From a virus (taxonomy: Duplodnaviria; Caudoviricetes), in IMG/VR virus record IMGVR_UViG_3300050131_000113, positions 1 to 58,171 of that record: a stretch of DNA of 58,171 bases; one strand, 5' to 3'. Of the stretch, positions 6,636-37,510 are shown piece after piece (the stretch's first letter is position 1; the number at the start of each line of letters is the position of its first letter). The notes beneath the pieces were generated by a model. That model worked only from the letters and a program-made list of their open reading frames with translations, did no database searches and was not told the DNA's origin. A program made the position numbers and the translations under genes.

Positions 6636-6636
6636 G

Positions 6637-6870: not shown

Positions 6871-6873
6871 ACC

Positions 6874-19589: not shown

Positions 19590-19614
19590 TGTGCAGCGCC
19601 TCGGGGCCAATCGG

Positions 19615-19872
19615 TCATTGGTTTACCTCATGCATGGGCGGCGCCCACGGCTCCCGTTTCAAATCCGCGAGAATCCCAACCCGCCGCTCGATCCGTTCCA
19701 GCGCCTGAAACAACGGCATGTAAGCGAGCCGCAATCGCAACCGGATGATATCCGAGACGCCCTCATAATATATTGCCGCGATCGAACCGTTGGAGCGCGG
19801 CGGGATGCACCCCAGCCGCCAGTCGGTCAGGGCCTCGGCCACCTCCTGCCGAAATTGTTCTCGCGCTGTCAT
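19615..19872 (-). CDS. hypothetical protein
   Basis: ATGA overlap. Confidence 0.45.
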   Translation of the reverse strand: MTAREQFRQEVAEALTDWRLGCIPPRSNGSIAAIYYEGVSDIIRLRLRLAYMPLFQALERIERRVGILADLKREPWAPPMHEVNQ

Positions 19873-20231
19873 TTCCTCGGCAGGCCATCCACCTGGACCT
19901 GCAAATGGTCCAGTTGTTTCGCCGTGTTGTTCACTTGAACCGATAGCCCGCTTTGAATTGCATTCGCGGTGGCCTGCGCATCGACCATCTTTCCGATCTG
20001 TAGCCAGACTTTGCTCTGGCCGTCTTTTACTTCAGCCAATCCATCCCGTTGCCCCGCCTTCAGATCGTTGATGACCCAACCTAGTCCGCCCAACGCGACC
20101 GTGATGAGAAAGGGCATGACGAACCGCGCGACCGAGATCATAACCGTGCTGTCGATTATCTTGCGGAACGGGGCCTCGCTGGACGGCACATTTACGGTAT
20201 CGCGTGGTTGATGTTCTGGCAGTCCATCCAT
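19869..20231 (-). CDS. TM plus coiled-coil protein (lysis region)
   Basis: One TM helix then a coiled coil. Confidence 0.6.
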   Translation of the reverse strand: MDGLPEHQPRDTVNVPSSEAPFRKIIDSTVMISVARFVMPFLITVALGGLGWVINDLKAGQRDGLAEVKDGQSKVWLQIGKMVDAQATANAIQSGLSVQVNNTAKQLDHLQVQVDGLPRK

Positions 20232-20249
20232 TCCGACATTCCCATTTCC

Positions 20250-20293
20250 AAAAGAGAGACAAAGGCCCGGCGCGCGTGATGGCGGCCGGGCCT
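20250..20293 (-). terminator. intrinsic terminator after the OMP gene
   Basis: AGGCCCGGC...GCCGGGCCT followed by a T-rich tail. Confidence 0.55.
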
Positions 20294-20304
20294 GATATCT
20301 GCGA

Positions 20305-21015
20305 TCAGTATTTGAACGCCACACCCACCCGCGCCTGGTTGCCGAGCCGCGCGCAGGTAGTGCCGCCGCCAGGGCAGAACGATTGCGAATTCATCTGCCA
20401 GCCGGCCCAGGTATCGACCATGACGTTGTTGGAGAGGCGCGTCAGAAGGCCCAGGCCGACGAGGGGCGCCACTACCCACTGATGGCCGGAGAACACACCG
20501 ATCTGGGCGCCGATGTCCTGTTCGACCAGGCCAGCGAAGGCGTAGCCATTGCCCGGGCTCGAGGTGATGCCGGCGGGGAGCAGCGGGATCGATGGCAGCG
20601 CCGGGTTGGTGGATGCCGGCAAAATGCTGCCGAGCAGACTGTTGATGGGCGAGCCCGCGCCGGCGCGTTCGATGAATAGACCGGGACCGGACAGGGCAAA
20701 CCCGTTGGTCGAGCCATTGAGGTTGGAGAAACCGCCTTGGCCTTCAACAAACCAGAACGCATTGACCGCGAATGGGCAGGTATAGCCGACGATGGCATCG
20801 ATATCGCCCTGCACGATCTGGGTTCCAACGGCCGCGCCATTGACGGCGCCCGCGTTGCCGCCGGTGCCGATACCATAATAGATGCCGCAGCGGGTCGGGT
20901 AACCGGCGGTCAACTGGCTGGTGATGGCCTTGGTGGCGAAGTCGGCGGCCTGAGCGGTCGCCGAGATCGCAACAGTGCCCGCGATCAGGGCAAGCAACAT
21001 CGTTCGCATTTTCAT
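20305..21015 (-). CDS. Omp25/RopB-like outer-membrane beta-barrel protein
   Basis: Signal peptide AQA-AD..TKA, GIYYG, VGY, C-terminal RVGVAFKY. Confidence 0.75.
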   Translation of the reverse strand: MKMRTMLLALIAGTVAISATAQAADFATKAITSQLTAGYPTRCGIYYGIGTGGNAGAVNGAAVGTQIVQGDIDAIVGYTCPFAVNAFWFVEGQGGFSNLNGSTNGFALSGPGLFIERAGAGSPINSLLGSILPASTNPALPSIPLLPAGITSSPGNGYAFAGLVEQDIGAQIGVFSGHQWVVAPLVGLGLLTRLSNNVMVDTWAGWQMNSQSFCPGGGTTCARLGNQARVGVAFKY

Positions 21016-21046
21016 GGTGTGGTTCTCCTAGTTGAGGATGGGAAGG

Positions 21047-21103
21047 AAGGTTTGATTCAGCGCGAGAGCGCTGCCCGCTTCAGCAGCGGAGAAGTCAGTC
21101 AGC
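21047..21103 (+). repeat. dispersed element arm flanked by an 11-bp direct repeat
   Basis: AAGGTTTGATTCAGCGCG-N24-GAGAAGTCAG; AGTTGAGGATG at 21030-21040 and 21104-21114. Confidence 0.8.
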
Positions 21104-21115
21104 AGTTGAGGATGT

Positions 21116-21472
21116 CTAAGCGGCGTGAGTGCCTTCGACGCCGCGCGCCATGCGGGCGCGGGTCCGGTGCAGAAGCCAGTGTTGTGCCTCTTCGATCTTG
21201 GTCAGGGCAAGCGCGTTCTCGCGGCAGCCAAATTTGCCTGCCTGAAACGACCGAAGCCGATCGATGACGATCGCCAGCAGTGCTTCCTGCGTCACGCCGT
21301 TGACGCCGTTCTCGGCAATCGGGCCGTTCTGAAAGCTGATGCGGCAGGTCAGCCCCTTCTGCGTTTCGATCATATATTCGTGGTTCGCCCCGCCAGCGCC
21401 GGGATCATCCAGAACGGTGATTTCCAGCAGATCGTTCGCCGGATTTACCTTATGCTCGTTGATAGTACGCAT
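21116..21472 (-). CDS. tad1: Tad1-like anti-defence signalling-molecule sponge
   Basis: GAGGANHEY, ISFQ.G, LL.IV.DRL.SFQAG.F..RENA.ALT..EEA..W...R...R..R.V.GT match the Tad1 pattern as recalled. Confidence 0.8.
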   Translation of the reverse strand: MRTINEHKVNPANDLLEITVLDDPGAGGANHEYMIETQKGLTCRISFQNGPIAENGVNGVTQEALLAIVIDRLRSFQAGKFGCRENALALTKIEEAQHWLLHRTRARMARGVEGTHAA

Positions 21473-21552
21473 TTTTGCAGGCTCCTTTTGAGCAAGCATT
21501 ATGCCGGAAACCGTCCGGCGCGGACGCTTTTACAAATGGTGAAGCATCAAGA

Positions 21553-21609
21553 CTGCGGGGTGACCGATAGGCGCCAACGCTTGCGCGGTGGCGCGTTGAA
21601 CCAGCCCTT
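21553..21609 (-). repeat. dispersed element arm
   Basis: AGGGCTGGTTCAACGCG...GCGCAAGCGT.GGC.CC...TCAC, similar to the 4647-4696 arm. Confidence 0.65.
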
Positions 21610-22000
21610 AAACTGCCCTGGGCATATCCGCGACGTTGGCCTGGATCGCCGCCGGCAGCGTGGCGATGGTCTTCGCGACTTCGGCCGGCTGCAGGGTCAG
21701 ACTTTGCGCTGCGATCTGACTGACCGTCACTTGCGGTAATCCGGCCTGATTGAGTTTTGCCGCCTGTGCCAGCGATTTGGCTTTCAAGACTTCGAGCTGC
21801 GATACCACGATAGCGCGGCCATAACTGTTCCAGAAGGACCATGCGCCGCCCAACGTCGCCATGCCGATCGCGACGAAGGTTTCGGTCTGGCTGCCGTTGA
21901 TAATGCCGTGTGCGGCGGCAGCCGAGCCGAGCGCCATCAGTCCGTTTTTCGCAACACTCGCCGCCAGCGTCAGCATCATGGTCTTGGTCTTGTCGTCCAT
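21608..22000 (-). CDS. putative holin
   Basis: Two N-terminal TM helices; located in the lysis cluster. Confidence 0.55.
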   Translation of the reverse strand: MDDKTKTMMLTLAASVAKNGLMALGSAAAAHGIINGSQTETFVAIGMATLGGAWSFWNSYGRAIVVSQLEVLKAKSLAQAAKLNQAGLPQVTVSQIAAQSLTLQPAEVAKTIATLPAAIQANVADMPRAV

Positions 22001-22045
22001 TTGGATTGTCCCCTGTCAGTGATTGCGGTCGCCCGCGAGTTGAAA

Positions 22046-22303
22046 TCAGCTTTTCGAATTGACGAACGCGGCCATCTTCCGCACCACCGGCAGTATGATC
22101 GAAACATCCGCCGCTCGGGATTTCAGGATCGGCAGCATCTGGTCGATATGTGCCTCGAGCGGTTGCTCCTTGGCCGCGATGGCCTGCAACTTTTCTTCGG
22201 CATCGAGCAACCGCAGCGCGGCCGGCGCCGCCGCATCAATCGCGGTCAGGTCGGATTCCGAAACCCCGTTGAAGCCGAGTATCATGCGAAGCCAGCGGTT
22301 CAT
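22046..22303 (-). CDS. hypothetical protein
   Basis: AGGAG RBS. Confidence 0.55.
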   Translation of the reverse strand: MNRWLRMILGFNGVSESDLTAIDAAAPAALRLLDAEEKLQAIAAKEQPLEAHIDQMLPILKSRAADVSIILPVVRKMAAFVNSKS

Positions 22304-22312
22304 GGTGTGCTC

Positions 22313-22663
22313 CTACTTCGTCGGTTCGACGCGAACGGCCGGAGGCCGCAGCCGCGTATCGGGCTCAACCCAAGGCGCATCCTGGAAACGCTTCGCCTTG
22401 GCGCGATCAGCGTCGGTCAGGCGTTCGTTGGCGGCTTTGGTGTCCCATCTCGGCGCGAGTGCTACTTGCGCCATCGCTGAATACGCGCCCGCAAACAGCA
22501 CAAGCAGCGCAACGGCGATCAGAAGCCATGTGGAATCCTTGTGCAGATGCAGCCTACTTCCGATGAATTTCCCGAAGAAAATAATCGCAAGCGCCGGGAT
22601 GCCGGCAGCCAGGATCAAAAGCAGGAGAACGACAAGAAGATCCGATAGTCCAGGCACTCTCAT
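22313..22663 (-). CDS. two-TM membrane protein
   Basis: Hydrophobic helices; AGGAGG RBS. Confidence 0.55.
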   Translation of the reverse strand: MRVPGLSDLLVVLLLLILAAGIPALAIIFFGKFIGSRLHLHKDSTWLLIAVALLVLFAGAYSAMAQVALAPRWDTKAANERLTDADRAKAKRFQDAPWVEPDTRLRPPAVRVEPTK

Positions 22664-22795
22664 ATCGAAAACCTCCTATGCAGGCAGAAAATAACCAGAC
22701 TAATCACCAGCAAAGGCACAGCCAGGATCTCGGCCCAGATCACGATTTCGAACTCGACGATATTGAAGCCTGACGGCAGCCATGGGCCCATGCGT

Positions 22796-22993
22796 TCACT
22801 CCGCGAAAATCTTGTCGACGGCCGCACTCGCCAGAGAATGGGCTTCATCGCGTTTCGACAGGCCTTGCGTGAATTCCTTCACCGCATCGACCGGGGACTG
22901 CTCTTCGATGTTGGAGACCGGCCGCTCATAGAGCCCCTTCAGCCCATCGCCGAAGGCGTCGTCGAGGGCATTTTGGGCGTCGGCGCGTTTCAT
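22796..22993 (-). CDS. hypothetical protein
   Basis: ATGA overlap with the endolysin gene. Confidence 0.45.
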   Translation of the reverse strand: MKRADAQNALDDAFGDGLKGLYERPVSNIEEQSPVDAVKEFTQGLSKRDEAHSLASAAVDKIFAE

Positions 22994-23556
22994 GAGCCCG
23001 ACATCGCAATCGACAGCGACTCGCACCGTTCCGCGCGGCCGATCCAGTCCTTGCCGAAATACTGGAATTTCGACAGATGCCGATACCAGTTTTCCTCGTC
23101 GGAACCGAAGGACTTGATGGCGGCGACGACGTCGGTAGGCGCGATCGATGCTACCGCCGTATCGGTCTGGCCGCCCCATACCCCGTCGATGCCGATGCCG
23201 AGCGCCTGCTGCAGGAGCCGGGTTGCTTCAAGGGGACCGCCGTTGACGGCGATATTGAAGAACGACAGATCGAGTCCAGCCGGAAGGTTTGCACAATGCG
23301 GCAACCAGTATTCCGTCCAGTAGATTTCGTTCTGCTCGTCGGTCGAGATGTTCTTGACCCACTGCAGCGGGAGCGCCTTGGCCCTCCGGTAGCGGTCGTA
23401 TTCCCGCTGGATGATGCCGTGCATAGTCATGCCGCCGGAATCATGAGGGTCGTTGGAATAGCCGCCCTCTTCCTTCAGAATGAAAGGCATGCAGGCGAGG
23501 AAACGCTTGGAAAGAGGCAAAGCGGCAGCGCCCGCGGGCGCGGTTAGGTCGGTCAT
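22990..23556 (-). CDS. endolysin, glycoside hydrolase family 108
   Basis: EGGYSNDPHDSGG.T.HGI; LQQALG...DGVWG..T; FGKDW..R. Confidence 0.9.
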   Translation of the reverse strand: MTDLTAPAGAAALPLSKRFLACMPFILKEEGGYSNDPHDSGGMTMHGIIQREYDRYRRAKALPLQWVKNISTDEQNEIYWTEYWLPHCANLPAGLDLSFFNIAVNGGPLEATRLLQQALGIGIDGVWGGQTDTAVASIAPTDVVAAIKSFGSDEENWYRHLSKFQYFGKDWIGRAERCESLSIAMSGS

Positions 23557-23642
23557 GGGATTGCCTGTTTTTCAGATGTCAAGGGTCGTTATTTGAGCGC
23601 GCCGGCTTGATCTGCCGATTCACCTAGAGGTAGCGTTGCGCC

Positions 23643-23798
23643 ATGCAACCGATCCAGCCAGCAATGATCATCGCCGCGTGCCTTCTGGTCGCCTTCGGGA
23701 TTTTGCTGGCCGCCATGAACTTCTGGCATTGTGAACGCCGCACCGAGATGACTCAGGCAGAGCGCGACGAGGAAGATCAAACGGCAGAGCGGTGGTGA
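23643..23798 (+). CDS. 51-aa antisense membrane protein (moron)
   Basis: One TM helix; TTGATC-N18-TAGCGT 6 nt before the ATG. Confidence 0.45.
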   Translation: MQPIQPAMIIAACLLVAFGILLAAMNFWHCERRTEMTQAERDEEDQTAERW

Positions 23799-26700
23799 CT
23801 ACGGCAGCGCGTTAACCGCGACAATTCCATTCCAGCGCGCGTTGGTGTCTCCGACATATTGACTTGCGCCGTAAGTGCCGTTGCCTTTGCCCTCGGTGAA
23901 GATTCCCATGTCTTGGAACTGCGCTAGCTTGGCCAGCTTTCCACTTTGAACAAGCTGGGTGTAGCACGACATATAAGCGGTCGCCTGTCCCGAACTGAAG
24001 TTCTCATAGTACCAAGCCGAAAGTAGATTCGGGTCTTTTCCAAAAAAATACGTTCCAATGTCAAAGATGATGATATCTTCCGATCCGCCCTCATAGCAAA
24101 TCAATTGGCTGCCAGCGAGCGGCTTACCTACGGCAGTATAGTTGGTGTTGTAGTAATCGCAGAACTGAGCAAAAGCGTTGACGGTGAAGGCTTGTGGCTG
24201 TCCGTTGACCGCTCCAACCCCGGTCCACTTGCCGCTGATAAGGTCTTGACCGATCTGGTCGCCATAGTAGGTCCAGGGGTGAGGGTAGGTTACTGGACTT
24301 GAACTGTGCAGGCTCTTGCTCTGCGCCATGAGGTACTGGACCGCTTCAAGCGGGCTCACGCATGCGGTATTCGAGCCGGTGCCGCCCGTGAAGGCACTGG
24401 GAGAGCCGCCCGGTGTTGTAGCTAGTCCGTAATTCGGTCCGATTCCGACAATCCAGTAAACTGTCCCGGTGCCCTGATTGGTCAGCGGTCCAGTAAACAT
24501 CAGGGTTGGCGTCGAGACGTTTCCGGGAGAACCAGAAAGCTGATAAGTACCCTGCGCGCCGAGCCCCGTCGTACCGCCACTTCCATACGCATTAATGGTG
24601 AGGCCGGATATCTGATCCGGATTTGACGAAACGAGCGTCATGCCCGCCTCGATATTGGTAGTGCCCTGACTGATGATTTGTGACTTGTAAAGTACAGTCA
24701 GCACATTGCCGCTGATTGTGGCAAAGAACGACGCCGGATTGCCAGAACTTGGGGCGGTCGATAGCGTTCCGGCCGCGAGCAATGCCGGCAGCGTTCCGAC
24801 GGGACTATCGACGTTTAACTTGATCGGCAGACCGATCAGCGGATCACCGCTCACGCCGACAAGATCATTCGCAATGGTATTGTTATTACGATCTTTCAAC
24901 CCACTTGGGAATGCGACAGTACTTGAGCCAAACGTGATTGGAGCGGTGTATCCAGCATTCATAAAATAGGAATGGCCAAGATAGCTTGCCATCGGCAGGT
25001 AGTCGAACAGAGCAGTAAGCGCGGGCGAGGACGGATTATCCGTTATGAACTGAGCCGCGCCTAAGCAAGCTCCCGCCAATCGATCACCTCCGGTCTGGTT
25101 GTTGCCGAAGTGCATCTTGTACTTGGAGCGGTTGGCAGAGCCATAGACCTGATAGACCGCATAGGCAGCGGCGGCCATCAAATATCCAGCAACGAAGTCA
25201 CCATTGTTGACGAACTTGGCAACGGTTTGTGTGATTGAAGCGATGTGAACGATGTTGAAATACTGACTGATCCCGGTGACCGGATTCCAGATTTCGTTGC
25301 TGAACTCATAGAGAGTGAGTTGACCGGACGGCATATTGGAGAGGAAGTAATTCGCAATGCTGGCGACATTTGTCGTCATGTCACTGAGCGTATAGCTACG
25401 GAAGGAAACGCCAGTGGATACGCCAACGCCAGAGACGTTCCCCGCATCATTTACGCAAGCACCGATGAATCCGGTCGTATCTATACCGGAGATGGTGCAT
25501 GTATTGCCGGAAATGCTCGCGACCGTGAAGCCGTTGAAGGTGTTGAGCGAGATAAAGATGTTCGCCGTTCCTGTCATCGATCCAGTGGTGCCAGCGACCG
25601 ATCCTCCTGGAGTGGTTGAAAGTTGGAACGTGTTTGTCGTTGCATTGATGACGTAGTAACGTGTCAGTTTCGTCAACCAGCTTGGATATGTCGAGGTATC
25701 CGCACTTCCCTGCTGATAGGGCGCAGCGGTCGAAACACCGGGAACAACCTCGGTTCCGTTGACTAATCCGTGACCGTTGAGCGTCCATGTCCCGCTGCTG
25801 TATGTCGGATTGACGATGCGAGCGAAAGCACCCACTATTCCGTAGTTCGTCACGACATTGATCGTACCGCTGGCGGAGCCGGTGAGCGTTATCTGAGAGC
25901 CACCTGGAGTAGGGGCAATGTTCCAAGTGCCGGTACTCGGATTTGAATTTATGACGTAGTAGCGCGTGCCTTTGGTGAGGCCAGTGGGGTAGCTATTAGA
26001 ATCCAGTCCCGACAGAAGGAGCACGCCAAAAGTAACATTGGCATTGTTTGGCGGCGTCCCCGCTCCGGTCGGGCTTGTGAATGTGCCGTTGCCGCTCGTA
26101 GAAAACGAAGAAGCATTAAGGTGTTGTCCCCCCGAGAAAACGCCCATGGTCGTCGTGAAATAGATTTGGTCGCTGACGCTGTAAGGGCATGGTCCTAGGA
26201 AATTGACGGTCGGCGTCGCCGCATTGGTGATCGACTGGATTTGCGCAACGCGACCCATCGTGCCGAACGGTAAGTTTTTCCAGATGTGTTTGCCGGTTTG
26301 CTTGGCGAGAGCAATTTCGACCGCAAGTGGTACGCCCGTATATCCGTTGATAGTACCGGCCCAACTCGAAGCCGCTAATGGCGTAACTCTGGTGCTGTCA
26401 TATGTTCCGTTGTTATTGTTGGTCTGGTCAATGTCCATCGTGCGGATTGCCCACGATGCTTGCTTGACCCAGTTAACATAGTCTGGGTCCCAGTAATTCC
26501 CGGCCGCGATCATTCCAATGTTGGCCGTTTTGGCCATGACGAAGCCGTAGGGCGGATTATTTCCAGTGCCAGAGAAAGAGATAACCAGCGAGCCGGTGGG
26601 ATCGACGTTTCCAGTTGGCAGCGTGAACGTCTGACCGCTGGATGTGGTCGTGAGAAGCGTACTGCCGCCGACCGCCTGCCATTGGAGAGTGACAGTCCAG

Positions 26701-27191
26701 CCAGCGCCACCGCCGCTGAAATTGAGCGTGATATTGGTATTCTGATATGAGGGCGGGCAGCCGCCTAGATCGTTTGTGAAGGAGATCGTTCCGGCGCCGC
26801 TCGGCTGCGTGGCCAATGGCTCGCCATTCGCGTCGAGGAATACTCCGATAGCAGACGGGGCAAAAACACCATTGCTCATCAACCCGGATTGGGCGCCTTG
26901 CGGCACTTCAGGGCGAAACGTAACGCCGGCAGCATAGCTATTGACTGTATTAGATGCGGTGACAATCCAGCCGCTACCGTTCTTCATCATGTTGACGAAG
27001 GGATAGTTATTGATGGCGAAGGGAGATGGGCTCTGGAGGTCTAGAACGAATTGGCCACCCGAACTCGGCACCACCGCAGCCGATCCGCGCAACAGCCTCG
27101 CCTCGGCAACATCCATGAAATGCGGAGCGAGGGAAACTGCCGCTGCCGTACACCCGGCATGAATGAAATCGCGACGGTTTATGTTCTTCAT
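23799..27191 (-). CDS. Tat-signal glycoside-hydrolase-like protein / putative depolymerase
   Basis: NRRDFI Tat motif; IRTMD, GVPL, YEFSNEIWN, YEGG; inserted repeats (TRYYVIN...TPGG). Confidence 0.7.
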   Translation of the reverse strand: MKNINRRDFIHAGCTAAAVSLAPHFMDVAEARLLRGSAAVVPSSGGQFVLDLQSPSPFAINNYPFVNMMKNGSGWIVTASNTVNSYAAGVTFRPEVPQGAQSGLMSNGVFAPSAIGVFLDANGEPLATQPSGAGTISFTNDLGGCPPSYQNTNITLNFSGGGAGWTVTLQWQAVGGSTLLTTTSSGQTFTLPTGNVDPTGSLVISFSGTGNNPPYGFVMAKTANIGMIAAGNYWDPDYVNWVKQASWAIRTMDIDQTNNNNGTYDSTRVTPLAASSWAGTINGYTGVPLAVEIALAKQTGKHIWKNLPFGTMGRVAQIQSITNAATPTVNFLGPCPYSVSDQIYFTTTMGVFSGGQHLNASSFSTSGNGTFTSPTGAGTPPNNANVTFGVLLLSGLDSNSYPTGLTKGTRYYVINSNPSTGTWNIAPTPGGSQITLTGSASGTINVVTNYGIVGAFARIVNPTYSSGTWTLNGHGLVNGTEVVPGVSTAAPYQQGSADTSTYPSWLTKLTRYYVINATTNTFQLSTTPGGSVAGTTGSMTGTANIFISLNTFNGFTVASISGNTCTISGIDTTGFIGACVNDAGNVSGVGVSTGVSFRSYTLSDMTTNVASIANYFLSNMPSGQLTLYEFSNEIWNPVTGISQYFNIVHIASITQTVAKFVNNGDFVAGYLMAAAAYAVYQVYGSANRSKYKMHFGNNQTGGDRLAGACLGAAQFITDNPSSPALTALFDYLPMASYLGHSYFMNAGYTAPITFGSSTVAFPSGLKDRNNNTIANDLVGVSGDPLIGLPIKLNVDSPVGTLPALLAAGTLSTAPSSGNPASFFATISGNVLTVLYKSQIISQGTTNIEAGMTLVSSNPDQISGLTINAYGSGGTTGLGAQGTYQLSGSPGNVSTPTLMFTGPLTNQGTGTVYWIVGIGPNYGLATTPGGSPSAFTGGTGSNTACVSPLEAVQYLMAQSKSLHSSSPVTYPHPWTYYGDQIGQDLISGKWTGVGAVNGQPQAFTVNAFAQFCDYYNTNYTAVGKPLAGSQLICYEGGSEDIIIFDIGTYFFGKDPNLLSAWYYENFSSGQATAYMSCYTQLVQSGKLAKLAQFQDMGIFTEGKGNGTYGASQYVGDTNARWNGIVAVNALP

Positions 27192-28429
27192 GGCCAGGCG
27201 ATCACAGGGAAAAGGCCGCCAGCGGCGACCAGTAAGTTCGCCGCCTGGTTCGGGTGGATGCCGTCTGGCGTATAGGGCGGCGATGGAGAAACCAGCCATT
27301 TGCCGCTGTTGAGGCTGCTTTCCAGAGCGCTGGTGATATCGACATATCCCTTGATGCCGGAGATTCCGGCCCGCACCGCCGCGTTGAATACCTGTCGCTG
27401 CGCTTCACTGGAAAGGACCGTCTGATTTCCCAACGTCGCCCATGAGTCCGTCGATGTCGTCAGCGGCGTGCAAGTTGTCTGATAAATCTTCTGGAACGAC
27501 GCTATGTTGGCCCAAATCGCCTGCAGCGCCGCAATCGTCGTTGCCGAGGTTTCACTATCCCGCATGTCGTTCACAACATATTGCGTGAAGACATGGGATC
27601 CCTTGGTCCAAAGCAACTTGCGCGCGGTGCTGTTGGACAGGCCATCGCTGGCGGCCTCACCGCCTTCGCATAGATTGATGAATGGTACATTCCCTAACGA
27701 GCGCGCAATCACGCCGACCTTGCCGCCATATCCAGTCGCCGAATTCGAAGTGTCCTCGACATCCTCCCCATCCGGCCAGCCGACACCGAGGCTGTCTCCG
27801 ATGATGATAACCGATGGGTTGCGCGTAATACCTAAAATAGCGATCGGCGCATGCGAATAGCTCCCCGAATTCGTGATCGTGCCACCCATCGTCTGGTTGG
27901 AAATAGAAGTTGTCGACAAGGCCATCGCCTCGCCGAGAAAAGCGTTCTGATAATTATTGTAGAATGTCCCGTTTGGATTGTTCCAGAAGATGCGAACCCA
28001 GAACGTCGCGCCCGAGGGAACACTGACCGGAAGATAATCCGAAAAAAGCAGACTGGCGTCGGAGATGGTGCCCGTCGTGGTGCCGGAAAACTTGACTTGG
28101 GTGAACGTCCCGCTGGGATATTCGATTGATGCTATGACTGTCGCACTGGCGCCCAGTCCAGCATCCGCCGAGCCGCCGTTAAGATTGGCGAAGTTTGAAA
28201 ACGCCAGCTTTATCGAAGTGAGATTTTCGGTCGCCACATGGGCCGACCGCGCCATCAGATATTTATTTGATGTGTCCTTGGTCCTGACCGGGCGGGCGCG
28301 GGACGCAACTGAGCCCTCATAATTTTGCAGGACGCTGCCATGCAAGAGACGCCCCTGCGCCTGCGCAGCCAATGCAACAGCCGATCCGGTCGCACAGCCA
28401 GCATAAACGAAATCGCGGCGGGATATCAT
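27188..28429 (-). CDS. Tat-signal SGNH/GDSL esterase
   Basis: SRRDFV Tat motif; GDSL, VND, DGIHP. Confidence 0.8.
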   Translation of the reverse strand: MISRRDFVYAGCATGSAVALAAQAQGRLLHGSVLQNYEGSVASRARPVRTKDTSNKYLMARSAHVATENLTSIKLAFSNFANLNGGSADAGLGASATVIASIEYPSGTFTQVKFSGTTTGTISDASLLFSDYLPVSVPSGATFWVRIFWNNPNGTFYNNYQNAFLGEAMALSTTSISNQTMGGTITNSGSYSHAPIAILGITRNPSVIIIGDSLGVGWPDGEDVEDTSNSATGYGGKVGVIARSLGNVPFINLCEGGEAASDGLSNSTARKLLWTKGSHVFTQYVVNDMRDSETSATTIAALQAIWANIASFQKIYQTTCTPLTTSTDSWATLGNQTVLSSEAQRQVFNAAVRAGISGIKGYVDITSALESSLNSGKWLVSPSPPYTPDGIHPNQAANLLVAAGGLFPVIAWP

Positions 28430-29337
28430 CAGAATCCTAAAACCGAATGATCGTTAGCGCTGATCGCGGCGAACGACGCGCTCTTGTCGGTGGCATAGAG
28501 GCCGAAGCTCATGATGCGAGAGAGGGAATGAAATCCGGTATTGTTGAAAGCCGCCGCTGTGAGATTATTCGTTCCGGGATTGGTGGTGACGGTGGAATTA
28601 ACCGTTCCGTCAACCGCGCCCTTTGAACTGGCACCAGCAAACAATCCCTGGATCGAATGATAATTGCCTTCCGTTGCGCCAGATGCGAAATCCCAAACGC
28701 CGCCTTGCGCGTACATTGCAACAACGCCAGAGCCATCGAAAAATAAACCCGTTGCTGAACTGTCACCGACGATCATGCCAAGAGATGCGACAGTGACGCG
28801 ACGCGCAACCGTAATCAGTGTAAAGGCTTGTACCAGAGCGAGCGATGCCGAATAATTCAGGTATTGACCGGCCGTGAAATCAATTGCAGGGAGCGAACCA
28901 AGATCGGAAAGCACGAGCGAAGGAAGTGATGTGCTTGTGACAATGTGATCCGTCCCGATTTGGTCCCATATCTTCGAGACATACGGCGTACCGTGCGCGG
29001 TAATCCAGGCCGACATTGCAGAGGTATCGAGAAAGCCGCTAGTCAAGATATTGAGGGTCAAGCCGTTGCCGGCCGACCCGTCCTGAATGTTTACGCTGGG
29101 GGTTGATCCCGTCGCATAAGCCGCGTTATAGGCATACACACCATAGAAATGAGCGGCCCCAGAAGCGATATCACCGGGGCCAACATAGCCGCCGCCGCTC
29201 GCTACCGGCAGCCCCGGTCCCGGCAAGATAGGACCTTGAGCACGAACGATAGCCGGTGACGCAATAAGCACCGCCGCCGCACTCTTTATGAAGGTACGGC
29301 GTGAAGGCAGGATAAGTTCCCGCGATGGCAAAATCAC
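28429..29337 (-). CDS. Tat-signal arabinofuranosidase-B/LamG-like protein
   Basis: SRRTFIKSAAAVLIASPAIVRA; YVSKIWDQ.G; GTGA overlap. Confidence 0.65.
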   Translation of the reverse strand: MILPSRELILPSRRTFIKSAAAVLIASPAIVRAQGPILPGPGLPVASGGGYVGPGDIASGAAHFYGVYAYNAAYATGSTPSVNIQDGSAGNGLTLNILTSGFLDTSAMSAWITAHGTPYVSKIWDQIGTDHIVTSTSLPSLVLSDLGSLPAIDFTAGQYLNYSASLALVQAFTLITVARRVTVASLGMIVGDSSATGLFFDGSGVVAMYAQGGVWDFASGATEGNYHSIQGLFAGASSKGAVDGTVNSTVTTNPGTNNLTAAAFNNTGFHSLSRIMSFGLYATDKSASFAAISANDHSVLGF

Positions 29338-31091
29338 CGCTTCACGCTCCAGTTGGTCGTCAGGGCAGACGGTGTGATCGAGGTGCCCGTTAGGTTGCAC
29401 TGCTTAATATTAATGTTGCCGGAAGTCGGATACGGAACGATCGTAAGCATGGCCGTAGGCAGATATCCCGTCGTTCCCGTGGGGTCTCCATTGAACCCAA
29501 TGGTTATGACATCTGTCGTTGCGACGCCCGGCGCCGAAACTATCGTGGCCGAGCCGCACGCACCCGACGAAATCGCCGACGTACCGAGTGTTGCGGTGCC
29601 GCTGGCGATGGTGAGCGTCTGACCGCAGGTACTCGCAAGCTGATGGAGATTTGTCCCGTCGAAATAAAGGTCTGAACTTTGGTACTGTTTACATGCAAGC
29701 GTAGCTGCGCCGTCGATATTACCCGACGAAGGCGTGTACGTAGCAGTGCCCGCTCCTAAATTCTTGACGGTGAAATAGTCGGTCGAGACAAAGCCCGTTA
29801 TGGTGATCGCTGCCGCAACCGGCGAAGCGTTGCTCTCCGTGACCAGCGAGCCCTTGTCGGTCGATGTGATGGTGTCCGTGGTGGCCGTGTTGTTGCGCGC
29901 TGTGACGGCCGCGCTGACAACCACCGCGCCTGTCGTCGGGCTGACTGTGACGCCGATGCCGCCCGTGACGGATGAAACCGCGCCAACGGCACTGATCACG
30001 CCACTCGACGCCGTGATCGATGTCCCATCGACCTGCACAATGCCCTTCTGCGAGGAAGTGGCGAGCTGGATCGCCGGGGCCCCATCGGAGCGCAGGAAAG
30101 TCGTCGCCGAGCCATTGACGGCTGTGGGTCCGGCGGTCGCCGTGGGATTGGCGCCGGACGATCCCGAGCCGCCGCAGACCGCTCCAGTCCCGGAAATTAC
30201 ACCGGATGAATTGACGTTCAAGCATTGCGTCGATCCCGTGATCCACGCCAGCGTCATCGCCGTCGTGGCGTTAAGGCTGTCGATCGTCGGCGCACTTCCA
30301 AACACCGCGTTTCCGGTTCCGGTCTTGGTCGTGAGTGCCGCCAGCAGGTTGGAGCTGGAGGGCGTCCCCAGGAATGTGCCGACGCCCGTACCGAGGCCAG
30401 AGAGACCGGAGAGCGGCAACCCCGTTCCGTTGGTCAGGGTGATCGAGGAAGGTGTGCCGCCCGCACCGTTGAACACGACCGGAGCACCGGCCGAGCCGAT
30501 GTTGTCGGCGAGTGCGGCCGCAACGCCCGTACCGAGGCCAGAGACACTTCCAATCGCCGGCGCACATGTCGAGGCCGAGGCTGCGGTGATCAGACCCTTG
30601 GCGTTGACCGTCAGCGTGATGCAACTGGTGGAACTACCAAACGAGCCGACATTGCTGTTGACGGTCGCAAGCGTGATGGTACCGCCAGAGGAAACGGTCG
30701 CATCCCCCGAGAACAGCGAATTGATGTAGGTCGCGACCTGCGTAAACGTCGCCTTGACGCCGCCGGAGCCTGCGGTCTGCACCACATAGATCAGGTTGGC
30801 GCCGGCAATCGCGCCTGAGGCGGACAGGTTCGATAGCGCGGTGTTGGCGGCGTAGGCGGCCGTGGCGAACGACAGCGCGCCGATCAGCGATAGCGTCGTC
30901 AGGCGTTTATTTCGCAGGATCTGCGCGAGTAGCGCCACCACCAGGCACAGCGATGCTGCGATGAATGCGCATTCCAAAATGCTCAGCACATTGATGCCGT
31001 GCCATGAATGGTTGAGTTCGCATATTTTGGCCGGGCAGCCGCCGCCGAATTCAACCAGATAGTGCATAAAATGCGGGAAATTATCGAACAT
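29334..31091 (-). CDS. tail-fibre-like protein with N-terminal TM and signal sequence
   Basis: KRLTTLSLIGALSFATAAYA; G/S/T-rich shaft with LTVNAKGLITAA; paired Cys. Confidence 0.7.
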   Translation of the reverse strand: MFDNFPHFMHYLVEFGGGCPAKICELNHSWHGINVLSILECAFIAASLCLVVALLAQILRNKRLTTLSLIGALSFATAAYAANTALSNLSASGAIAGANLIYVVQTAGSGGVKATFTQVATYINSLFSGDATVSSGGTITLATVNSNVGSFGSSTSCITLTVNAKGLITAASASTCAPAIGSVSGLGTGVAAALADNIGSAGAPVVFNGAGGTPSSITLTNGTGLPLSGLSGLGTGVGTFLGTPSSSNLLAALTTKTGTGNAVFGSAPTIDSLNATTAMTLAWITGSTQCLNVNSSGVISGTGAVCGGSGSSGANPTATAGPTAVNGSATTFLRSDGAPAIQLATSSQKGIVQVDGTSITASSGVISAVGAVSSVTGGIGVTVSPTTGAVVVSAAVTARNNTATTDTITSTDKGSLVTESNASPVAAAITITGFVSTDYFTVKNLGAGTATYTPSSGNIDGAATLACKQYQSSDLYFDGTNLHQLASTCGQTLTIASGTATLGTSAISSGACGSATIVSAPGVATTDVITIGFNGDPTGTTGYLPTAMLTIVPYPTSGNINIKQCNLTGTSITPSALTTNWSVKR

Positions 31092-31321
31092 CAGCAGCCC
31101 CCCTCAAGACAGAAATGGCTTGAACCGTCTTCAAGCAGCAGGAACGAGGTGCCGTCCTCGAGCAGAAGAGCGCCGGCGATCGGCGGGGGTGCTGTTGCGC
31201 TTGAAATAGGCCCAGTGAGAGTCTTATTCATCCATCCACCCTCGGGGCCGGTCAGGTTTGAAGCCCCCGCCAAGCTGGCGAACAGCATCAGCGCGGTCGC
31301 GATAAAGAGAACCTTGTTCAT
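31091..31321 (-). CDS. small exported tail connector-like protein
   Basis: Signal peptide; LLLEDG repeated twice. Confidence 0.6.
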   Translation of the reverse strand: MNKVLFIATALMLFASLAGASNLTGPEGGWMNKTLTGPISSATAPPPIAGALLLEDGTSFLLLEDGSSHFCLEGGC

Positions 31322-31713
31322 GGCTGCGCGTATCCCTGAACAATCCGCAGCGTCGTCGTGTTGGATGCGGTGATTGCGGCCAGATACGCGGCGGTCTCAT
31401 TGCTGATGTTAAGGGTGACGAACGAATTGCCGGGCAGGCTATAAGTGCCAGCTATAGGTGCCGCGGTGGATGTCGTCTGCGCTGTGGCGGCAGCACTTGA
31501 TGTCGCACCGAAGGCATAAAACGCCTCCTGCGATGTGATATTGTAGACGATAACGACCGGGCCGCAGGTCGAAAGCTGCACATTCGCGCTGCTGCTTGTG
31601 ACCGCCAGCGTACCTCCGGCGCATGCCGAGATGCCGGCCTGTTGCGCCATCGCGCCCGCGGGAAACAACAGGGCAAACGCAAAGCCGATCGCCGCAACAA
31701 GTTTTGCGCGCAT
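31318..31713 (-). CDS. exported beta-sandwich tail-region protein
   Basis: MRAKLVAAIGFAFALLFPAGAMA signal peptide; Cys pair. Confidence 0.65.
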   Translation of the reverse strand: MRAKLVAAIGFAFALLFPAGAMAQQAGISACAGGTLAVTSSSANVQLSTCGPVVIVYNITSQEAFYAFGATSSAAATAQTTSTAAPIAGTYSLPGNSFVTLNISNETAAYLAAITASNTTTLRIVQGYAQP

Positions 31714-31769
31714 GGGGATGTTCTCCAGTCAGGATATTTCAGGGAAAGTTGATAAAAACCGACGCACCG

Positions 31770-32282
31770 TCAGTGCATCGCGACCGTGACGCCGTAGGCG
31801 CAAAATGTGCAGCTACCCGGGCCCAGCGTGATCTGGATGTAATGCCCCGCCGCTACCCCTGGTATGGATACTGTCCCATCGACCGCGGTATTGCTGGTGT
31901 TGCTGGTGGTGACACTCCCGATGGTCGAGACAGGCGAACTACAATTATTCGCGACCGTGCCGCAGTCCTTGACAATGAATTGCAGGCTTCCCGGTGCGGT
32001 TGGAACCGCGGTAACGGCCTCGATACTATCGACCGTGACGGCGACGTGGGTCTTGCAAACCGCAATGGTGCCGGAATTCCCGGAGGTTGCGAACAATGAA
32101 CCGTTGCAGAAGCTTTCCGGGACGTTAGCGGCAGGGATGGCAGCGATGCTGTCGACAACCAGCGCCTCCGAAGCACAATTTGCCGTCGATGTCCCGACCG
32201 GTGCAGTGCGGCATTGCTGGCCTTGGGCCATCGCCGGAGACGCCAGCAGCACCAGACACAGGGCGAGCAGCCATCTCATCAT
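31770..32282 (-). CDS. exported Cys-rich tail-region protein
   Basis: MMRWLLALCLVLLASPAMA signal peptide; 8 Cys in the mature part. Confidence 0.65.
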   Translation of the reverse strand: MMRWLLALCLVLLASPAMAQGQQCRTAPVGTSTANCASEALVVDSIAAIPAANVPESFCNGSLFATSGNSGTIAVCKTHVAVTVDSIEAVTAVPTAPGSLQFIVKDCGTVANNCSSPVSTIGSVTTSNTSNTAVDGTVSIPGVAAGHYIQITLGPGSCTFCAYGVTVAMH

Positions 32283-33493
32283 AGTTTGACGATCGCATTG
32301 AGGAACTGAGACGGCTGCATGTTGTTGTGCGCGCCGCCGCCGGTATTGGTCGATGTCACCACCGCATTACCAGCCGTGATATTGCCAGTCGAAGTCCGGG
32401 CGCCCACGCTCCCGGAGGTTCCTACCAGTTGCCCGTTGCCGCCACCGCCCGCGCCGGATGAAGCGACCCCCGCCGGGTTGTTGACGATGCCGCTATCGCT
32501 CGAGGTGACGGTGAGCGAGATATTACCGCCGTTCGCCGATACGATGCCCGCGGGCGTCTCGGACAGCGCCAACAGATGCGTTTCCTCGCCGACCGTCAGC
32601 CCCATCGTCCGCGCCGTAAGCCCAGAGCCGCTTCCAGCGACCGCCAGCGCACGCCCCAGCATCTTCGGTAGTGTCATCCGGCAGTTCGCGGCCCATGCGG
32701 CTGCAGCAGAGCCCTGCGCTGCCCGCGTCGTCCCAGCACCCGTAGAAGTCAGTAGCGGACAGGTCGTATCGGTGAACGGCGAAGCAAACAGGATATTGAA
32801 CAGCGCCAGGTTGACGGCGGAATTGCTGTTGGAGGATCCGGAAGTCGCGTCCCCGAAGGTACCGTCGTCGAACATCAGCCAGCCGGTCGGCGGCGTCGAG
32901 GCAACCGTCAACCATACGACGCCAGTCGAGGCGGTCCCGTTGTTGATCGATGAATTGGAGGGGTTGAGCAGTTCCCAGCGGGTGTTGGCCGAATTATAGC
33001 GCAACACGATTTCAGCCAAATTGCCCGGGATGTCGCCGACCGCGAGCGCCGATCCGCCGAGCTTGGTGATGGTCCGCGCCGTCAGCCCATTCGGGGCAAA
33101 GGTCGGCGTCGTGGTGGCATTCGAAGCGCTGGCCCGGCCGAAGCACAATTGGCCGTCATTGAGGGTCACGAGCGCCGGGGTATAGGTTGCGGTCAGTGCG
33201 TCTGCGGTGCCCCCGAAGACGGTCCAATTGACCAATCCATCCTGAATCTGCCCAAAAGCGCTATAATCGGTCCGATTTACCGCGTTTTGCACCACTGTAT
33301 GACGAAATCCGGCCATCGGCAGGTTCGCGGACGGTTGACCCTGACCGTCCCGGGTGAGACAATTGCCCAAACCGTTCGCTGCGATGTCGTTGGTATCGGT
33401 ATCCATCCGGGAGGACGAAATATCGAGCCCGGCCGCCTTGTCGGCGACCCAGCTGAAGATTCTGTTAAAACTACCGGAACCGTTCCAACCCAT
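32279..33493 (-). CDS. tail fibre/spike with collar domain (cytoplasmic)
   Basis: MGWNGSGSF..., PTGWLMFDDG, GEETHLL, HNNMQPSQFLNAIVKL. Confidence 0.8.
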   Translation of the reverse strand: MGWNGSGSFNRIFSWVADKAAGLDISSSRMDTDTNDIAANGLGNCLTRDGQGQPSANLPMAGFRHTVVQNAVNRTDYSAFGQIQDGLVNWTVFGGTADALTATYTPALVTLNDGQLCFGRASASNATTTPTFAPNGLTARTITKLGGSALAVGDIPGNLAEIVLRYNSANTRWELLNPSNSSINNGTASTGVVWLTVASTPPTGWLMFDDGTFGDATSGSSNSNSAVNLALFNILFASPFTDTTCPLLTSTGAGTTRAAQGSAAAAWAANCRMTLPKMLGRALAVAGSGSGLTARTMGLTVGEETHLLALSETPAGIVSANGGNISLTVTSSDSGIVNNPAGVASSGAGGGGNGQLVGTSGSVGARTSTGNITAGNAVVTSTNTGGGAHNNMQPSQFLNAIVKL

Positions 33494-33547
33494 CGATTAT
33501 TTCCAGTGCAAAGCGTTGCGCGCCCGGCGCAAACCGGGTCGGATCAG

Positions 33548-33796
33548 ATGATGATGAAGCTGTTTCAGATGCTGGTTTTTACCGCCGTGATGTTTTCCAA
33601 CATTCACTGGCAGTGGACGCCGAACGGTTACCTGGCGTCGCTGATATCGATCGGTGTGACGTTCATCGCGACAGTTTCGCTACTCTGGATCATCGATGTG
33701 TCACGGCGCGCTGCGAGATATATCAAGCCGCGGCGCGGTCGAGGCCATCAGCGCGTTTATCAGCGCACTTTTCCCCCCGCCTTGCCGCGGCGGTAG
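33548..33796 (+). CDS. antisense two-TM protein, putative superinfection exclusion
   Basis: Two TM helices and a basic tail; convergent with the last ejection gene. Confidence 0.55.
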   Translation: MMMKLFQMLVFTAVMFSNIHWQWTPNGYLASLISIGVTFIATVSLLWIIDVSRRAARYIKPRRGRGHQRVYQRTFPPALPRR

Positions 33797-35347
33797 TGGC
33801 ACGTAATTCGGATTCGGCAATGTCACTCCCGGGGTAACCCGGCTCGCGATCGTCGGGCTTTGGGTATTGGCGAGATTGGCCTGATGCAGCGGCGATCGAG
33901 CGCGCAGCATTTCATCCAGATTGTTGAAGCTGCGCCTCGTGATTGCATCGCCACCCATCTTGGAGGCCAGTGCTGCCAGCGATAGCGGGATCGAAGCGCC
34001 TCCGGTCAGTACAGCGTCCTGGGCATGGACGATACCCTTCAGGCCAGTGTCCGGGCCAAGCTTTCCCACCTGACGAAGCGTATTGCCAAGCCAGTTGCCA
34101 CGAATTCCACTTTCCAGCGCCGCCTTCTCGGCGTCGTTAAACCCTCCGGCACGCCTGAAATTATCCATGGCCAGCGGTCGCAATGCCTGCCGCGTGGCAT
34201 TATTGATATTGCCCCCTCCATAGGTGGAATCGGCCTTCAGATCAGCATTGCCAAGCCGGGTCTGGACTTCCTCCGCACGTTTTGCAGCACCCCAATTGCC
34301 CCCGGCTTCCTTCAAGAGATCGCCGGCCTTTTGCGCGTTGCCTTGAACCAGATCCGGTTGCCGCAGGTTTTCCAGGAACGAATTGACGTGCCCGATCGCA
34401 CGATTGGCGGCGACCGCATCGCTTGTCATGTTGCCGGTCGGGCTGCGATCGTCCGCGATGCGCCCCAGCACTTTCCGCACCGACTGGATGTCGTCGATCG
34501 AGGCCGGCTGACCGATCGAGCGCGCCATGCCCTGGTTCGGATTCGATAGTTCGCTGATCGCCGCAAACGTCTTCGGCTCATTGGCGGCGCGAAAGCCGCT
34601 ATTGGTGCCGTTTTCCAGATCGTTCTGAATCCAGTGGTGCAGGAACGAAACCGCATCGGGATGGATCTGCACGTCCTTGACGTCGGGATGATTGTATTGA
34701 GCCCGCGCAGCGTCTTTCAGTTCTTCCACGGTCGGAGCCGCGATCGACTTGGCCTTGTTCAAGACATCCGCAAGCCCGCCGCTTGCGACCGCGCCAGCAA
34801 CGCGCGCATAGGGTTCGGCCGCAGTCCCGGCTGTCAGTTGCCCCGCGGTCTCGCTGCCGATCGCGGGTGCGGCAACGCGCGTCAAGACCTTCGATAGCAG
34901 TCCCTCGCCGCCGCCCAACGCGGCAGGCGCGAATTCGCCGACGGTTTGGGCATACTGCCCCGGCACCGTCTCCGGCTTGTGGAAATCGCCAGTGACGCCC
35001 TCGATGCCCTTTTGGATGCCGCTGCTGGTCGGAAGGATCGGCCCCGTCGGTTCCGGTCCTTTGTCAAAGCCGAGCTTGTTGGCGATATAATCCGACGCGA
35101 CCTGGCTGCCTTTGGTAAGAAGATTGGCGGCGTCGCCGGGAAGTCCGGCAAGCCCGATCGCACCCTTGGCAAGCCCGATCCCGCCGCTCTTGGCGACGTC
35201 GGCCATGACAGACGGATGCGAGGCGTAAGCTGCCTTCAATTCGTCATCGGACATCTTGCTCAGATCAGGCGTCGCCGCAGATGGCACAGCGGGAGCGGCG
35301 TACATCGCCTTCAGATGATCGTCCGATAGCGCGGAAAGATCGGTCAT
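33701..35347 (-). CDS. DNA ejection (internal virion) protein
   Basis: Ala/Gly-rich helical protein; DLS.LSDD.L repeats; synteny. Confidence 0.7.
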   Translation of the reverse strand: MTDLSALSDDHLKAMYAAPAVPSAATPDLSKMSDDELKAAYASHPSVMADVAKSGGIGLAKGAIGLAGLPGDAANLLTKGSQVASDYIANKLGFDKGPEPTGPILPTSSGIQKGIEGVTGDFHKPETVPGQYAQTVGEFAPAALGGGEGLLSKVLTRVAAPAIGSETAGQLTAGTAAEPYARVAGAVASGGLADVLNKAKSIAAPTVEELKDAARAQYNHPDVKDVQIHPDAVSFLHHWIQNDLENGTNSGFRAANEPKTFAAISELSNPNQGMARSIGQPASIDDIQSVRKVLGRIADDRSPTGNMTSDAVAANRAIGHVNSFLENLRQPDLVQGNAQKAGDLLKEAGGNWGAAKRAEEVQTRLGNADLKADSTYGGGNINNATRQALRPLAMDNFRRAGGFNDAEKAALESGIRGNWLGNTLRQVGKLGPDTGLKGIVHAQDAVLTGGASIPLSLAALASKMGGDAITRRSFNNLDEMLRARSPLHQANLANTQSPTIASRVTPGVTLPNPNYVPLPPRQGGGKSALINALMASTAPRLDISRSAP

Positions 35348-37506: not shown

Positions 37507-37510
37507 GGCG

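Follow-up and report, generated by a model that had tools for sequence, protein, structure and literature searches.

In tailed phages, virion and depolymerase proteins stay in the cytoplasm until lysis. Enzymes that attack host surface polysaccharide include the virion-borne tailspike and fibre depolymerases of phages with multiple receptor-binding proteins, such as the SGNH esterase tailspike of phage G7C, and the soluble, non-virion depolymerases that are freed at lysis, which are either cytoplasmic proteins or alternative products of tailspike genes. Phage accessory proteins that are exported comprise Cor, Llp, Lom and Bor, the signal-peptide and signal-arrest-release (SAR) endolysins, and phage PstS; to our knowledge, none of them uses the twin-arginine translocation (Tat) pathway. 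Here we describe a run of seven late genes (g1 to g7; 23799-32282) in IMGVR_UViG_3300050131_000113, a whole viral record rated complete, whose 58,171 bp are referred to as the window. All seven open reading frames (ORFs) that lie between a short tail fibre gene and a GH108 endolysin gene begin with an export leader, and the run is referred to below as the cassette.

This arrangement is apparently undescribed in the literature searched. A full-text search found neither Sec or Tat leaders on tail fibres or tailspikes nor periplasmic completion of tailed virions. An archaeal-virus preprint describes the P22 tailspike as lacking a signal peptide, presumably because export is not needed, and a 2026 Klebsiella screen (PMC13412088) describes a SignalP 6 search for Tat motifs in its phage proteins, in which none was found.

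The run of seven leader-bearing genes is real, non-random and recurrent. It consists of three plain Sec-type leaders (g1 to g3), one long two-helix leader (g4) and three twin-arginine leaders (g5 to g7), assigned with our own rule-based signal caller and by reading of the sequences. The caller identified leaders in none of the 14 upstream late proteins, from terminase to fibre, and in six of the seven cassette proteins; it misses the long leader of g4, which was counted by hand. Among 82 greedily called genes, nine were leader-positive with g4 added in this way, seven of them consecutive, and a leader run of seven was reached in none of 200,000 label shuffles. An initial sequence-only reading had claimed that every late gene from a collar-type fibre to the endolysin carries an export signal, and these counts bear it out, as does the mixture of leader types it described, with four Sec-type leaders (counting the two-helix leader of g4) and three Tat-type motifs. 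It had also pointed to paired cysteines in the Sec-type proteins, which are indeed present: the mature chains of g1 to g4 contain 8, 2, 2 and 8 cysteines respectively, and those of g5, g6 and g7 contain 0, 2 and 9.

The cassette lies on the minus strand, which carries the late genes of the window. The first three proteins are small: g1 (31770-32282) has 170 residues and a 19-residue leader ending in PAMA, g2 (31318-31713) has 131 residues and a 23-residue leader ending in GAMA, and g3 (31091-31321) has 76 residues and a 20-residue leader ending in LAGA. All three pass the Sec criteria of the caller, namely a basic n-region, an uncharged hydrophobic h-region and small residues at −3/−1. The fourth protein, g4 (29334-31091), is a 585-residue fibre with beta-strand repeats, and its 81-residue leader is made up of a short His-rich extension, a hydrophobic helix, the sequence RNKR, a second hydrophobic stretch and AAYA. 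Only the second hydrophobic stretch after RNKR has Sec-type features, and the leader as a whole is atypical.

The remaining three proteins carry twin-arginine motifs: SRRTFIK in g5 (28429-29337; 302 residues, 33-residue leader ending in VRA), SRRDFV in g6 (27188-28429; 413 residues, 24-residue leader ending in AQA) and NRRDFI in g7 (23799-27191; 1130 residues, 31-residue leader ending in AEA). These fit what we take to be the Tat consensus, of the S/T-R-R-x-F-L-K type. Behind each motif come a stretch of weak hydrophobicity and a site of the AxA type, and all three leaders were accepted by the rule-based caller. The curated Tat models gave little support. With TIGR01409, g6 scored 17.6 against a cutoff of 16.7 and was the sole cassette protein to pass; g5 had no match to TIGR01409 and scored 16.8 with Pfam TAT_signal, below the threshold of 22.7, and g7 matched neither TIGR01409 nor Pfam TAT_signal.

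Whether the true starts might lie downstream of the signals was a concern of the sequence-only reading. Two starts did have to be revised, although the leaders were kept on all seven proteins. The start of g5 is most likely the GTG at 29337 instead of 29400, giving a GTGA overlap with the stop codon of g4, and that of g7 is most likely the ATG at 27191 instead of 27299, giving an ATGA overlap with the stop codon of g6; the public protein collection holds g7 as the same 1130-residue form. Overlaps of 1-4 nt occur at six of the seven junctions (fibre/g1, where the fibre stop and the g1 start overlap as ATGA, and g2/g3, g3/g4, g4/g5, g5/g6 and g6/g7), and this fits co-expression with the fibre gene. 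The only junction with a spacer is g1/g2, where 56 nt contain a hairpin and a T-run. A promoter and terminator scan of 19000-38000 gave 7 and 18 hits against shuffle means of 7.8 and 18.7, hence no enrichment and no evidence of a promoter belonging to the cassette itself. The G+C content falls to 0.53-0.56 over g5 to g7 (24001-28000) from about 0.60 elsewhere in the genome, which is consistent with the enzyme genes of the cassette having been acquired recently.

The leader of g4 resembles the extended signal peptide region (ESPR) of autotransporters and trimeric adhesins in its layout (extension, hydrophobic, basic, hydrophobic, AxA) and in preceding a long beta-strand-repeat protein; g4 differs from the ESPR proteins in having no sequence relation to them and no outer-membrane translocator domain by sequence. 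The family is large, with 2866 homologues at E <= 0.001. Leader and cysteine counts in the families reported here rest on the best 120 or 150 matches only. The best 120 g4 homologues comprise 88 with a short leader, 26 with the long leader seen in g4, 4 without a leader and 2 fragments. Mature cysteines (median 10) are even in number in 113 of the 114 leader-bearing homologues (65/65, 22/23 and 26/26 by class), and the four leaderless ones contain 1, 2, 3 and 2 cysteines. So strict a parity would be expected of cysteines that pair as disulfides in an oxidising compartment. P0103, one of the leaderless homologues, begins at once with the conserved N-domain, which in the other homologues comes just after the cleavage site.

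The conservation profile of g4 is even over its whole length, including the C-terminus, as would be expected more of a platform than of a receptor tip that varies. The central repeat of g4 occurs widely, in the phage-like regions of many phyla, and g4 has no match in Pfam (E <= 0.1), PHROG or the PDB; PHROG scans of the g4 N-domain, of P0103 and of the small cassette proteins gave nothing useful. The long leader (30849-31091, minus strand) is itself conserved as the subfamily of 26 among the best 120 homologues counted above. Once cleaved, it would remain as a two-helix membrane peptide, which might itself act in some way, for instance on the timing of lysis or export.

The proteins encoded immediately upstream appear to belong with g4. 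Relatives of g3, whose C-terminus has LLLEDG-type repeats and ends in GGC, were found by tblastn immediately upstream of g4 relatives in three other viral loci (L004, L005 and L006). The position of g2 in these loci is occupied by small exported proteins with two cysteines, whose sequence likeness to g2 is weak (E 0.001 pairwise against the L006 protein). For g1, the nearest clusters in the Atlas are viral hypothetical proteins (best score 0.94) and the structural neighbours are lectin-like or CBM4_9-like with TM-scores of 0.47-0.59, so a lectin or carbohydrate-binding-module (CBM)-like beta-sandwich may be entertained as a lead only; a scan of viral contigs gave no close relative of g1.

Among the Tat-type proteins, g5 belongs to a concanavalin/GH54-like beta-sandwich family, the family profile matching the N-terminal part of GH54 arabinofuranosidase B (E 1.3e-5). 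The leader state of this family is mixed: of 1080 representative relatives, the best 150 comprise 36 Sec-type, 10 Tat-type and 104 leaderless proteins. At least four cysteines are present in 15 of the 36 Sec-type and in none of the 10 Tat-type members, and the Sec-type members are richer in cysteine than both the leaderless (p = 0.003) and the Tat-type (p = 0.0027) members. In P0250 and P0347, a Sec-type leader precedes the same mature N-terminus as that of g5 itself, where the leader is of the Tat type. A 297-residue protein of L005 was considered as a g5 orthologue and rejected, its likeness being confined to a 36-residue signature (pairwise E 8e-5).

The sixth protein, g6, consists of an N-terminal beta-domain and an SGNH hydrolase domain (phrog_8480, E 2.3e-54). 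The Pfam model PF13472 gave 24.4, below its cutoff of 32.9, and the family profile matches the solved SGNH hydrolase 9kr0 over its full length (E 8.6e-17). In 30 sequences, G211 and the predicted catalytic residues S213 (GDS block) and H392 (DxxH block) are invariant and D212 nearly so; g6 is an SGNH esterase in which these residues are intact. The profile also matches 7tog, a structure that comes up with papers on acetyl-xylan esterase. Fusions of g5-type and g6-type esterase sequences exist among the relatives in either order, so the two proteins probably share one substrate. The caller found 14 Tat-like and 25 Sec-like leaders among 120 members of the g6 family, a few of the Sec calls (P0133, P0170 and P0203) looking false by eye. 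In g6 relatives, leaders of either type stop just before a GLHLHG-type motif, and the leaderless relatives, including gp62 of the cultured Mesorhizobium phage Lo5R7ANS, start with MGILLLG-like sequences.

The largest protein, g7, contains inserted repeats that are tail-fibre-like, with a weak tail-fibre PHROG match at residues 542-609 (numbered in the 1166-residue form). Among 5.8 billion proteins it has one relative only, P0003, with 47% identity. More distant exported relatives, both with Sec-type leaders, occur in L004 (28% identity) and L005 (23% identity). Neither the single sequence nor a profile of g7 matched Pfam or the PDB, the Atlas search was uninformative, and scans of viral contigs with g7 and g5 gave no close relative. 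The sequence N632-E633-x-W635-N636 is invariant in all four sequences, and a second invariant glutamate was not found; as a guess by eye, the NE-x-WN motif recalls the glycoside hydrolases of clan GH-A, with no match to any family model or solved sequence. The claim that the mature parts of the cassette proteins look like fibre, connector and receptor-binding domains is supported in so far as they are fibre-like, lectin-like and enzyme-like.

The leaders of g6 and g7 are near-identical and are followed by a common mature N-terminus, RLL[HR]GS. This type of tag occurs in 6 of 142 leader proteins and 17 of 1138 others, and is confined to g6- and g7-like families. A single mature N-terminal tag on every cassette enzyme was also considered and rejected: among the 120 g5-family members with GPGD close to the N-terminus, an LLG-type motif is present in just 20, in 16 behind a leader and in 4 at the very N-terminus. 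As the counts of such motifs are low, the correspondence between mature N-termini and leaderless N-termini rests on the named examples and is not a general rule. Taken together, the families suggest that the leaders are functional for export, as the leaders are conserved, Sec- and Tat-type leaders interchange, and the cysteine content follows the route.

Recurrence was examined in 80 viral loci found via the g4 family and 51 via the g5 family, with genes in the related loci called by a simple length and GC3 rule of our own. Of the 41 g5-type and 68 g4-type loci that span at least 8 kb, 11 and 7 respectively contain runs of three to six consecutive leader genes, giving 18 of 109 related viral loci; the three cultured-phage loci contain none. 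In L151, L173 and L197, the runs comprise five or six leader genes. The gene order of the window, in which a small exported protein is followed by g3 and then g4, recurs with relatives of g3 and g4 in L004, L005 and L006, where further exported proteins come next. With duplicate loci removed, 40 of 159 neighbours of leader-bearing g5-type genes carry leaders themselves, compared with 8 of 164 neighbours of leaderless ones (Fisher p = 2e-7). This co-occurrence is no absolute rule: in L155, a g5-type gene without a leader is flanked by Sec-type genes.

The position of the related blocks varies between phages rather than being fixed within the tail module. They follow the portal gene in L151 and lie between capsid and tubular-tail genes in the T7-like L197, between head and sheath genes in L173, and between capsid and connector genes in L005. 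The internal virion proteins and the N-terminus of the fibre recur in L206, which is free of a cassette. The blocks also differ in content. From 79 leader proteins in 19 loci, 47 were scanned with Pfam, leaving out g4- and g5-type and obvious lysis proteins: pectate-lyase-like (2), GH54-like (2), GH5 (1), BNR (1), SGNH (1) and tail Collar (1) matches were obtained, NosD was also named, and most had no match.

Two of these loci merit separate mention. In L004, an RlpA-like protein with a leader is encoded within the lysis block, and the gene next upstream of that for the amidase-type endolysin specifies a Tat-type SGNH esterase (8932-9345 and 6056-6937). L005, a prophage-like contig, has a gene for a collagen-like Gly-X-Y repeat protein (2421-3488) between the portal and protease genes, and just upstream of its exported block are acetyltransferase-like and glycosyltransferase-like ORFs. 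The latter may be compared with a 658-residue cytoplasmic, cysteine-rich protein encoded in the head-gene region of the window (44091-46067, minus strand), the N-terminus of which matches a glycosyltransferase family and the C-terminus a methyltransferase-named family.

Cultured phages and bacterial genomes yielded little. In tblastn searches of 50,697 cultured phage records, g7 and g5 had no match and g4 matched over only 12% of its length, in one pelagiphage (two records). No g5 relative was found in four bacterial genomes, and 301 genomes of one family gave only one weak match (E 4.8e-4). Matches in genome collections were also considered as evidence of the host and were rejected in this role, since the central fibre repeat, which is widespread, accounts for the whole match in most of the 65 loci.

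We tentatively favour the explanation that the cassette is a mobile late-gene set of polysaccharide-binding and polysaccharide-cleaving proteins, which would be matured in the periplasm, released at lysis and active apart from the virion; the proteins themselves are proposed to have tail-fibre and tailspike ancestry. The cassette would be transcribed and translated together with the structural genes. The g1 to g4 proteins would cross the inner membrane unfolded via Sec and gain their disulfides in the periplasm, and g5 to g7 would fold in the cytoplasm and be exported via Tat. In the periplasm, the g4 fibre, its partners g2 and g3, the exchangeable g5 beta-sandwich, the putative g6 SGNH deacetylase and the large g7 would accumulate and probably associate, until lysis by holin, endolysin and spanin frees them. 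The disulfide-stabilised set could then act on host surface polysaccharide (capsule, exopolysaccharide or O-antigen), clearing matrix and receptor around the burst. A plausible benefit in peat would be that a freely diffusing lectin and esterase, perhaps with a glycanase, clear acetylated exopolysaccharide round the burst.

Four observations favour a virion-independent set. The blocks are found at unrelated places of the late operon in phages of different morphotypes; L206 possesses the fibre and the internal virion proteins yet no cassette; the conserved contacts seem to be internal to the cassette, as in the g2-g3-g4 trio and the g5/g6 fusions; and the G+C content drops over g5 to g7.

Several points weigh against this explanation. 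Cytoplasmic enzymes are also freed by lysis, and proteins taking the Tat route, which lack disulfides, gain nothing obvious from export but the company of the others. The common leader and RLL[HR]GS tag of g6 and g7 look like a docking peptide, which would suit a platform and possibly a virion, and leaderless g6 relatives start at a motif equivalent to this tag. Leaderless relatives are also found in the fibre and lysis region of the cultured Rhizobium phage RHph_N2 and carry a minor-tail annotation in Gordonia phages, and phages with several tailspikes keep extra receptor-binding proteins in the slot that the cassette occupies here. Lastly, export, cleavage and disulfide formation are steps that we infer, and the leader calls depend on our own rules and on reading by eye, with the TIGR01409 cutoff reached by only 2 of the 13 Tat-looking leaders tested (g6 and P0134, the latter being the one that passes among ten relatives).

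The sequence-only reading had proposed that a distal adsorption apparatus is built in the periplasm and joins the virion at or after lysis. Here, the exported proteins would dock on particles made in the cytoplasm after holin opening or lysis and would serve as receptor-binding proteins. This assembly onto the virion is possible, although we consider it rather unlikely and not the best supported explanation, with several results leaning to a secreted complex, the alternative that the same reading had named. A variant for diderm hosts, in which Sec-exported oxidised fibres and Tat-exported enzymes would join on g4 and dock between holin triggering and rupture of the outer membrane, seems to us similarly doubtful. 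The position of the cassette speaks for docking, as its first start codon overlaps the stop codon of the fibre gene and the lysis genes begin where it ends, and its proteins are of receptor-binding or tailspike type, with a leader-bearing tail Collar domain in a related block. The mature N-termini of exported g4-, g5- and g6-type proteins equal the N-termini of leaderless relatives (P0103, and the MPLLTTGAG, MGSMTLLGAG and MGILLLG forms), one N-terminal tag is common to g6 and g7 in the manner of the anchors of multi-tailspike phages, the conservation of g4 extends along the entire protein, as in a platform, and leaders co-occur within loci.

However, docking has no tailed-phage precedent in the full-text literature search, and a single common docking site on the virion is unlikely when blocks occur at unrelated sites in podo-, myo- and sipho-like late operons. 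L206, with its fibre and no cassette, and the leaderless g5-type protein among Sec-type neighbours in L155 also argue against docking, as does the restriction of the RLL[HR]GS-type tag to g6- and g7-like families. If docking were true, tailed virions would have a second, extracytoplasmic assembly line, with disulfide-stabilised receptor-binding proteins.

A further explanation, which we regard as improbable, is that the proteins act in the periplasm before lysis, on nascent surface polysaccharide or on O-acetylated peptidoglycan. They would thereby strip receptors, resulting in exclusion or in no re-adsorption to debris, or prepare the wall for the endolysin. T5 and lambdoid phages do have exported receptor-blocking proteins encoded beside their fibre genes. 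Leader-bearing SGNH esterases adjoin lysis genes both in the window (g6) and in L004, where an exported RlpA-like protein is also present in the lysis block, and in RHph_N2 an acetylesterase gene lies right before the holin gene. On the other hand, a 504-residue disulfide-rich fibre and several lectin-like proteins are unexpected in a lysis helper, late expression gives little time for a change of the surface, and many blocks are distant from lysis genes. The solved relatives of g6 are SGNH proteins of the carbohydrate-esterase type, one of them discussed as an acetyl-xylan esterase, and they are not shown to be peptidoglycan esterases.

That the leaders are no export signals at all, but uncleaved N-terminal anchors or start-codon artefacts, is highly improbable: the calls come from our own caller, most Tat-looking leaders fall short of curated cutoffs and P0003, the sole close g7 relative (on a 6-kb contig), is leaderless at its called start, but the starts are fixed by overlapping start and stop codons, 114 of the 120 g4 homologues have a leader with the cysteine parity described above, members of the g5 family differ in cysteine content according to their type of leader, the same mature sequence can stand behind a Sec or a Tat leader, and the clustering is far above chance.

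In the genome around the cassette, the late genes on the minus strand encode, in order, the large terminase (53747-55279), the portal (50463-52907), the major capsid protein (46599-47630), two tail proteins (40607-41569 and 39042-40607) and a 720-residue internal virion protein with a transglycosylase part (35344-37506), after which come a 548-residue protein and the 404-residue fibre. This short tail fibre (32279-33493) is cytoplasmic and leaderless, being negative in the rule-based caller; residues 1-84 match the virion structural protein family phrog_13989 (E 1.8e-21), Pfam gave no match, and the C-terminus appears by eye to be collar-type. At the other end, the leaderless GH108 endolysin (22990-23556; PF05838, 77.7 bits; phrog_315, E 2.4e-32) marks the end of the cassette, and membrane-protein genes lie downstream. 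Among named phages, Bradyrhizobium phage ppBjS10J-1 is the closest by portal (35.6%) and has a capsid protein that is 55% identical; by portal, Ruegeria, Rhizobium, Mx8-like and Brucella podoviruses come next. The early genes include Erf, an exonuclease, a methyltransferase, a replication initiator and RNase H, and no tRNA genes were found in the window. Peat metagenome runs of several studies contain DNA near-identical to the window; contigs from four of these runs were near-identical copies with no informative variants.

The 240-nt gap between g7 and the endolysin gene holds a plus-strand ORF (23643-23798) of 51 residues with one hydrophobic helix, which is convergent with g7 such that their stop codons abut, and which may represent a moron for a small membrane protein. 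On the minus strand, beyond the lysis genes in the downstream direction, are a leader-bearing 236-residue protein with an aromatic last residue, which looks like an outer-membrane beta-barrel (20305-21015; no match in Pfam, NCBIfam or PHROG), and a 93-residue leader-bearing exported protein (19329-19610). In the early region, a 240-residue ORF on the plus strand (10189-10911) contains a long Gly-Tyr/Gly-Asp repeat (GYGYGYG...).

The pattern seen in 18 of the 109 related loci, with hundreds to thousands of uncultured homologues, concerns core families that are absent from the about 50,000 cultured phage genomes searched, apart from the partial g4 match. Whether the proteins act apart from the virion or dock on it, this would be a large-scale use by phages of both Sec and Tat for late proteins, and would define a class of disulfide-stabilised phage carbohydrate-active proteins. 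It opens questions on the dependence of phages on host tat and dsb genes, on their movement through exopolysaccharide-rich soils such as peat, and on the completion of virions outside the cytoplasm. In annotation, gene callers and virus-detection pipelines may take such blocks for host genes or cargo.

Compared with known systems, the cassette is closest in its domains to the virion tailspike depolymerases, with which it shares fibre repeats, an SGNH esterase and a beta-sandwich lectin, the related blocks adding pectate-lyase-like, GH5 and BNR proteins. It also shares with them a location after the primary fibre gene and exchangeable enzymes with a common N-terminal tag. Known tailspikes are assembled in the cytoplasm and are leaderless, in contrast to all seven cassette proteins, and related blocks also lie in the head-gene regions of other phages. 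Since it fails the cytoplasmic-assembly feature of virion receptor-binding proteins, it is not classed as a tail module. With the soluble depolymerases it would share, under the mechanism favoured here, the action of late enzymes on host surface polysaccharide outside the particle, but it differs in comprising several genes, one of them for a fibre, whose products have Sec and Tat leaders and include proteins with paired cysteines; no other set of this kind was found in the literature searched.

The late modules of RHph_N2 and Lo5R7ANS encode homologous SGNH proteins, the order in RHph_N2 being fibre, small protein, acetylesterase, holin, lysozyme, spanins and SGNH protein; unlike in the cassette, the five fibre and esterase proteins of RHph_N2 and gp62 of Lo5R7ANS are leaderless. 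Exported accessory proteins resemble the cassette in using host export routes, and several of them adjoin fibre or lysis genes, the window itself having one such protein (20305-21015). They differ in being single small proteins or lysis enzymes and not a run of fibre and enzymes. The cassette thus likely combines the domains of virion tailspikes, the action of soluble depolymerases and the host export of accessory proteins.

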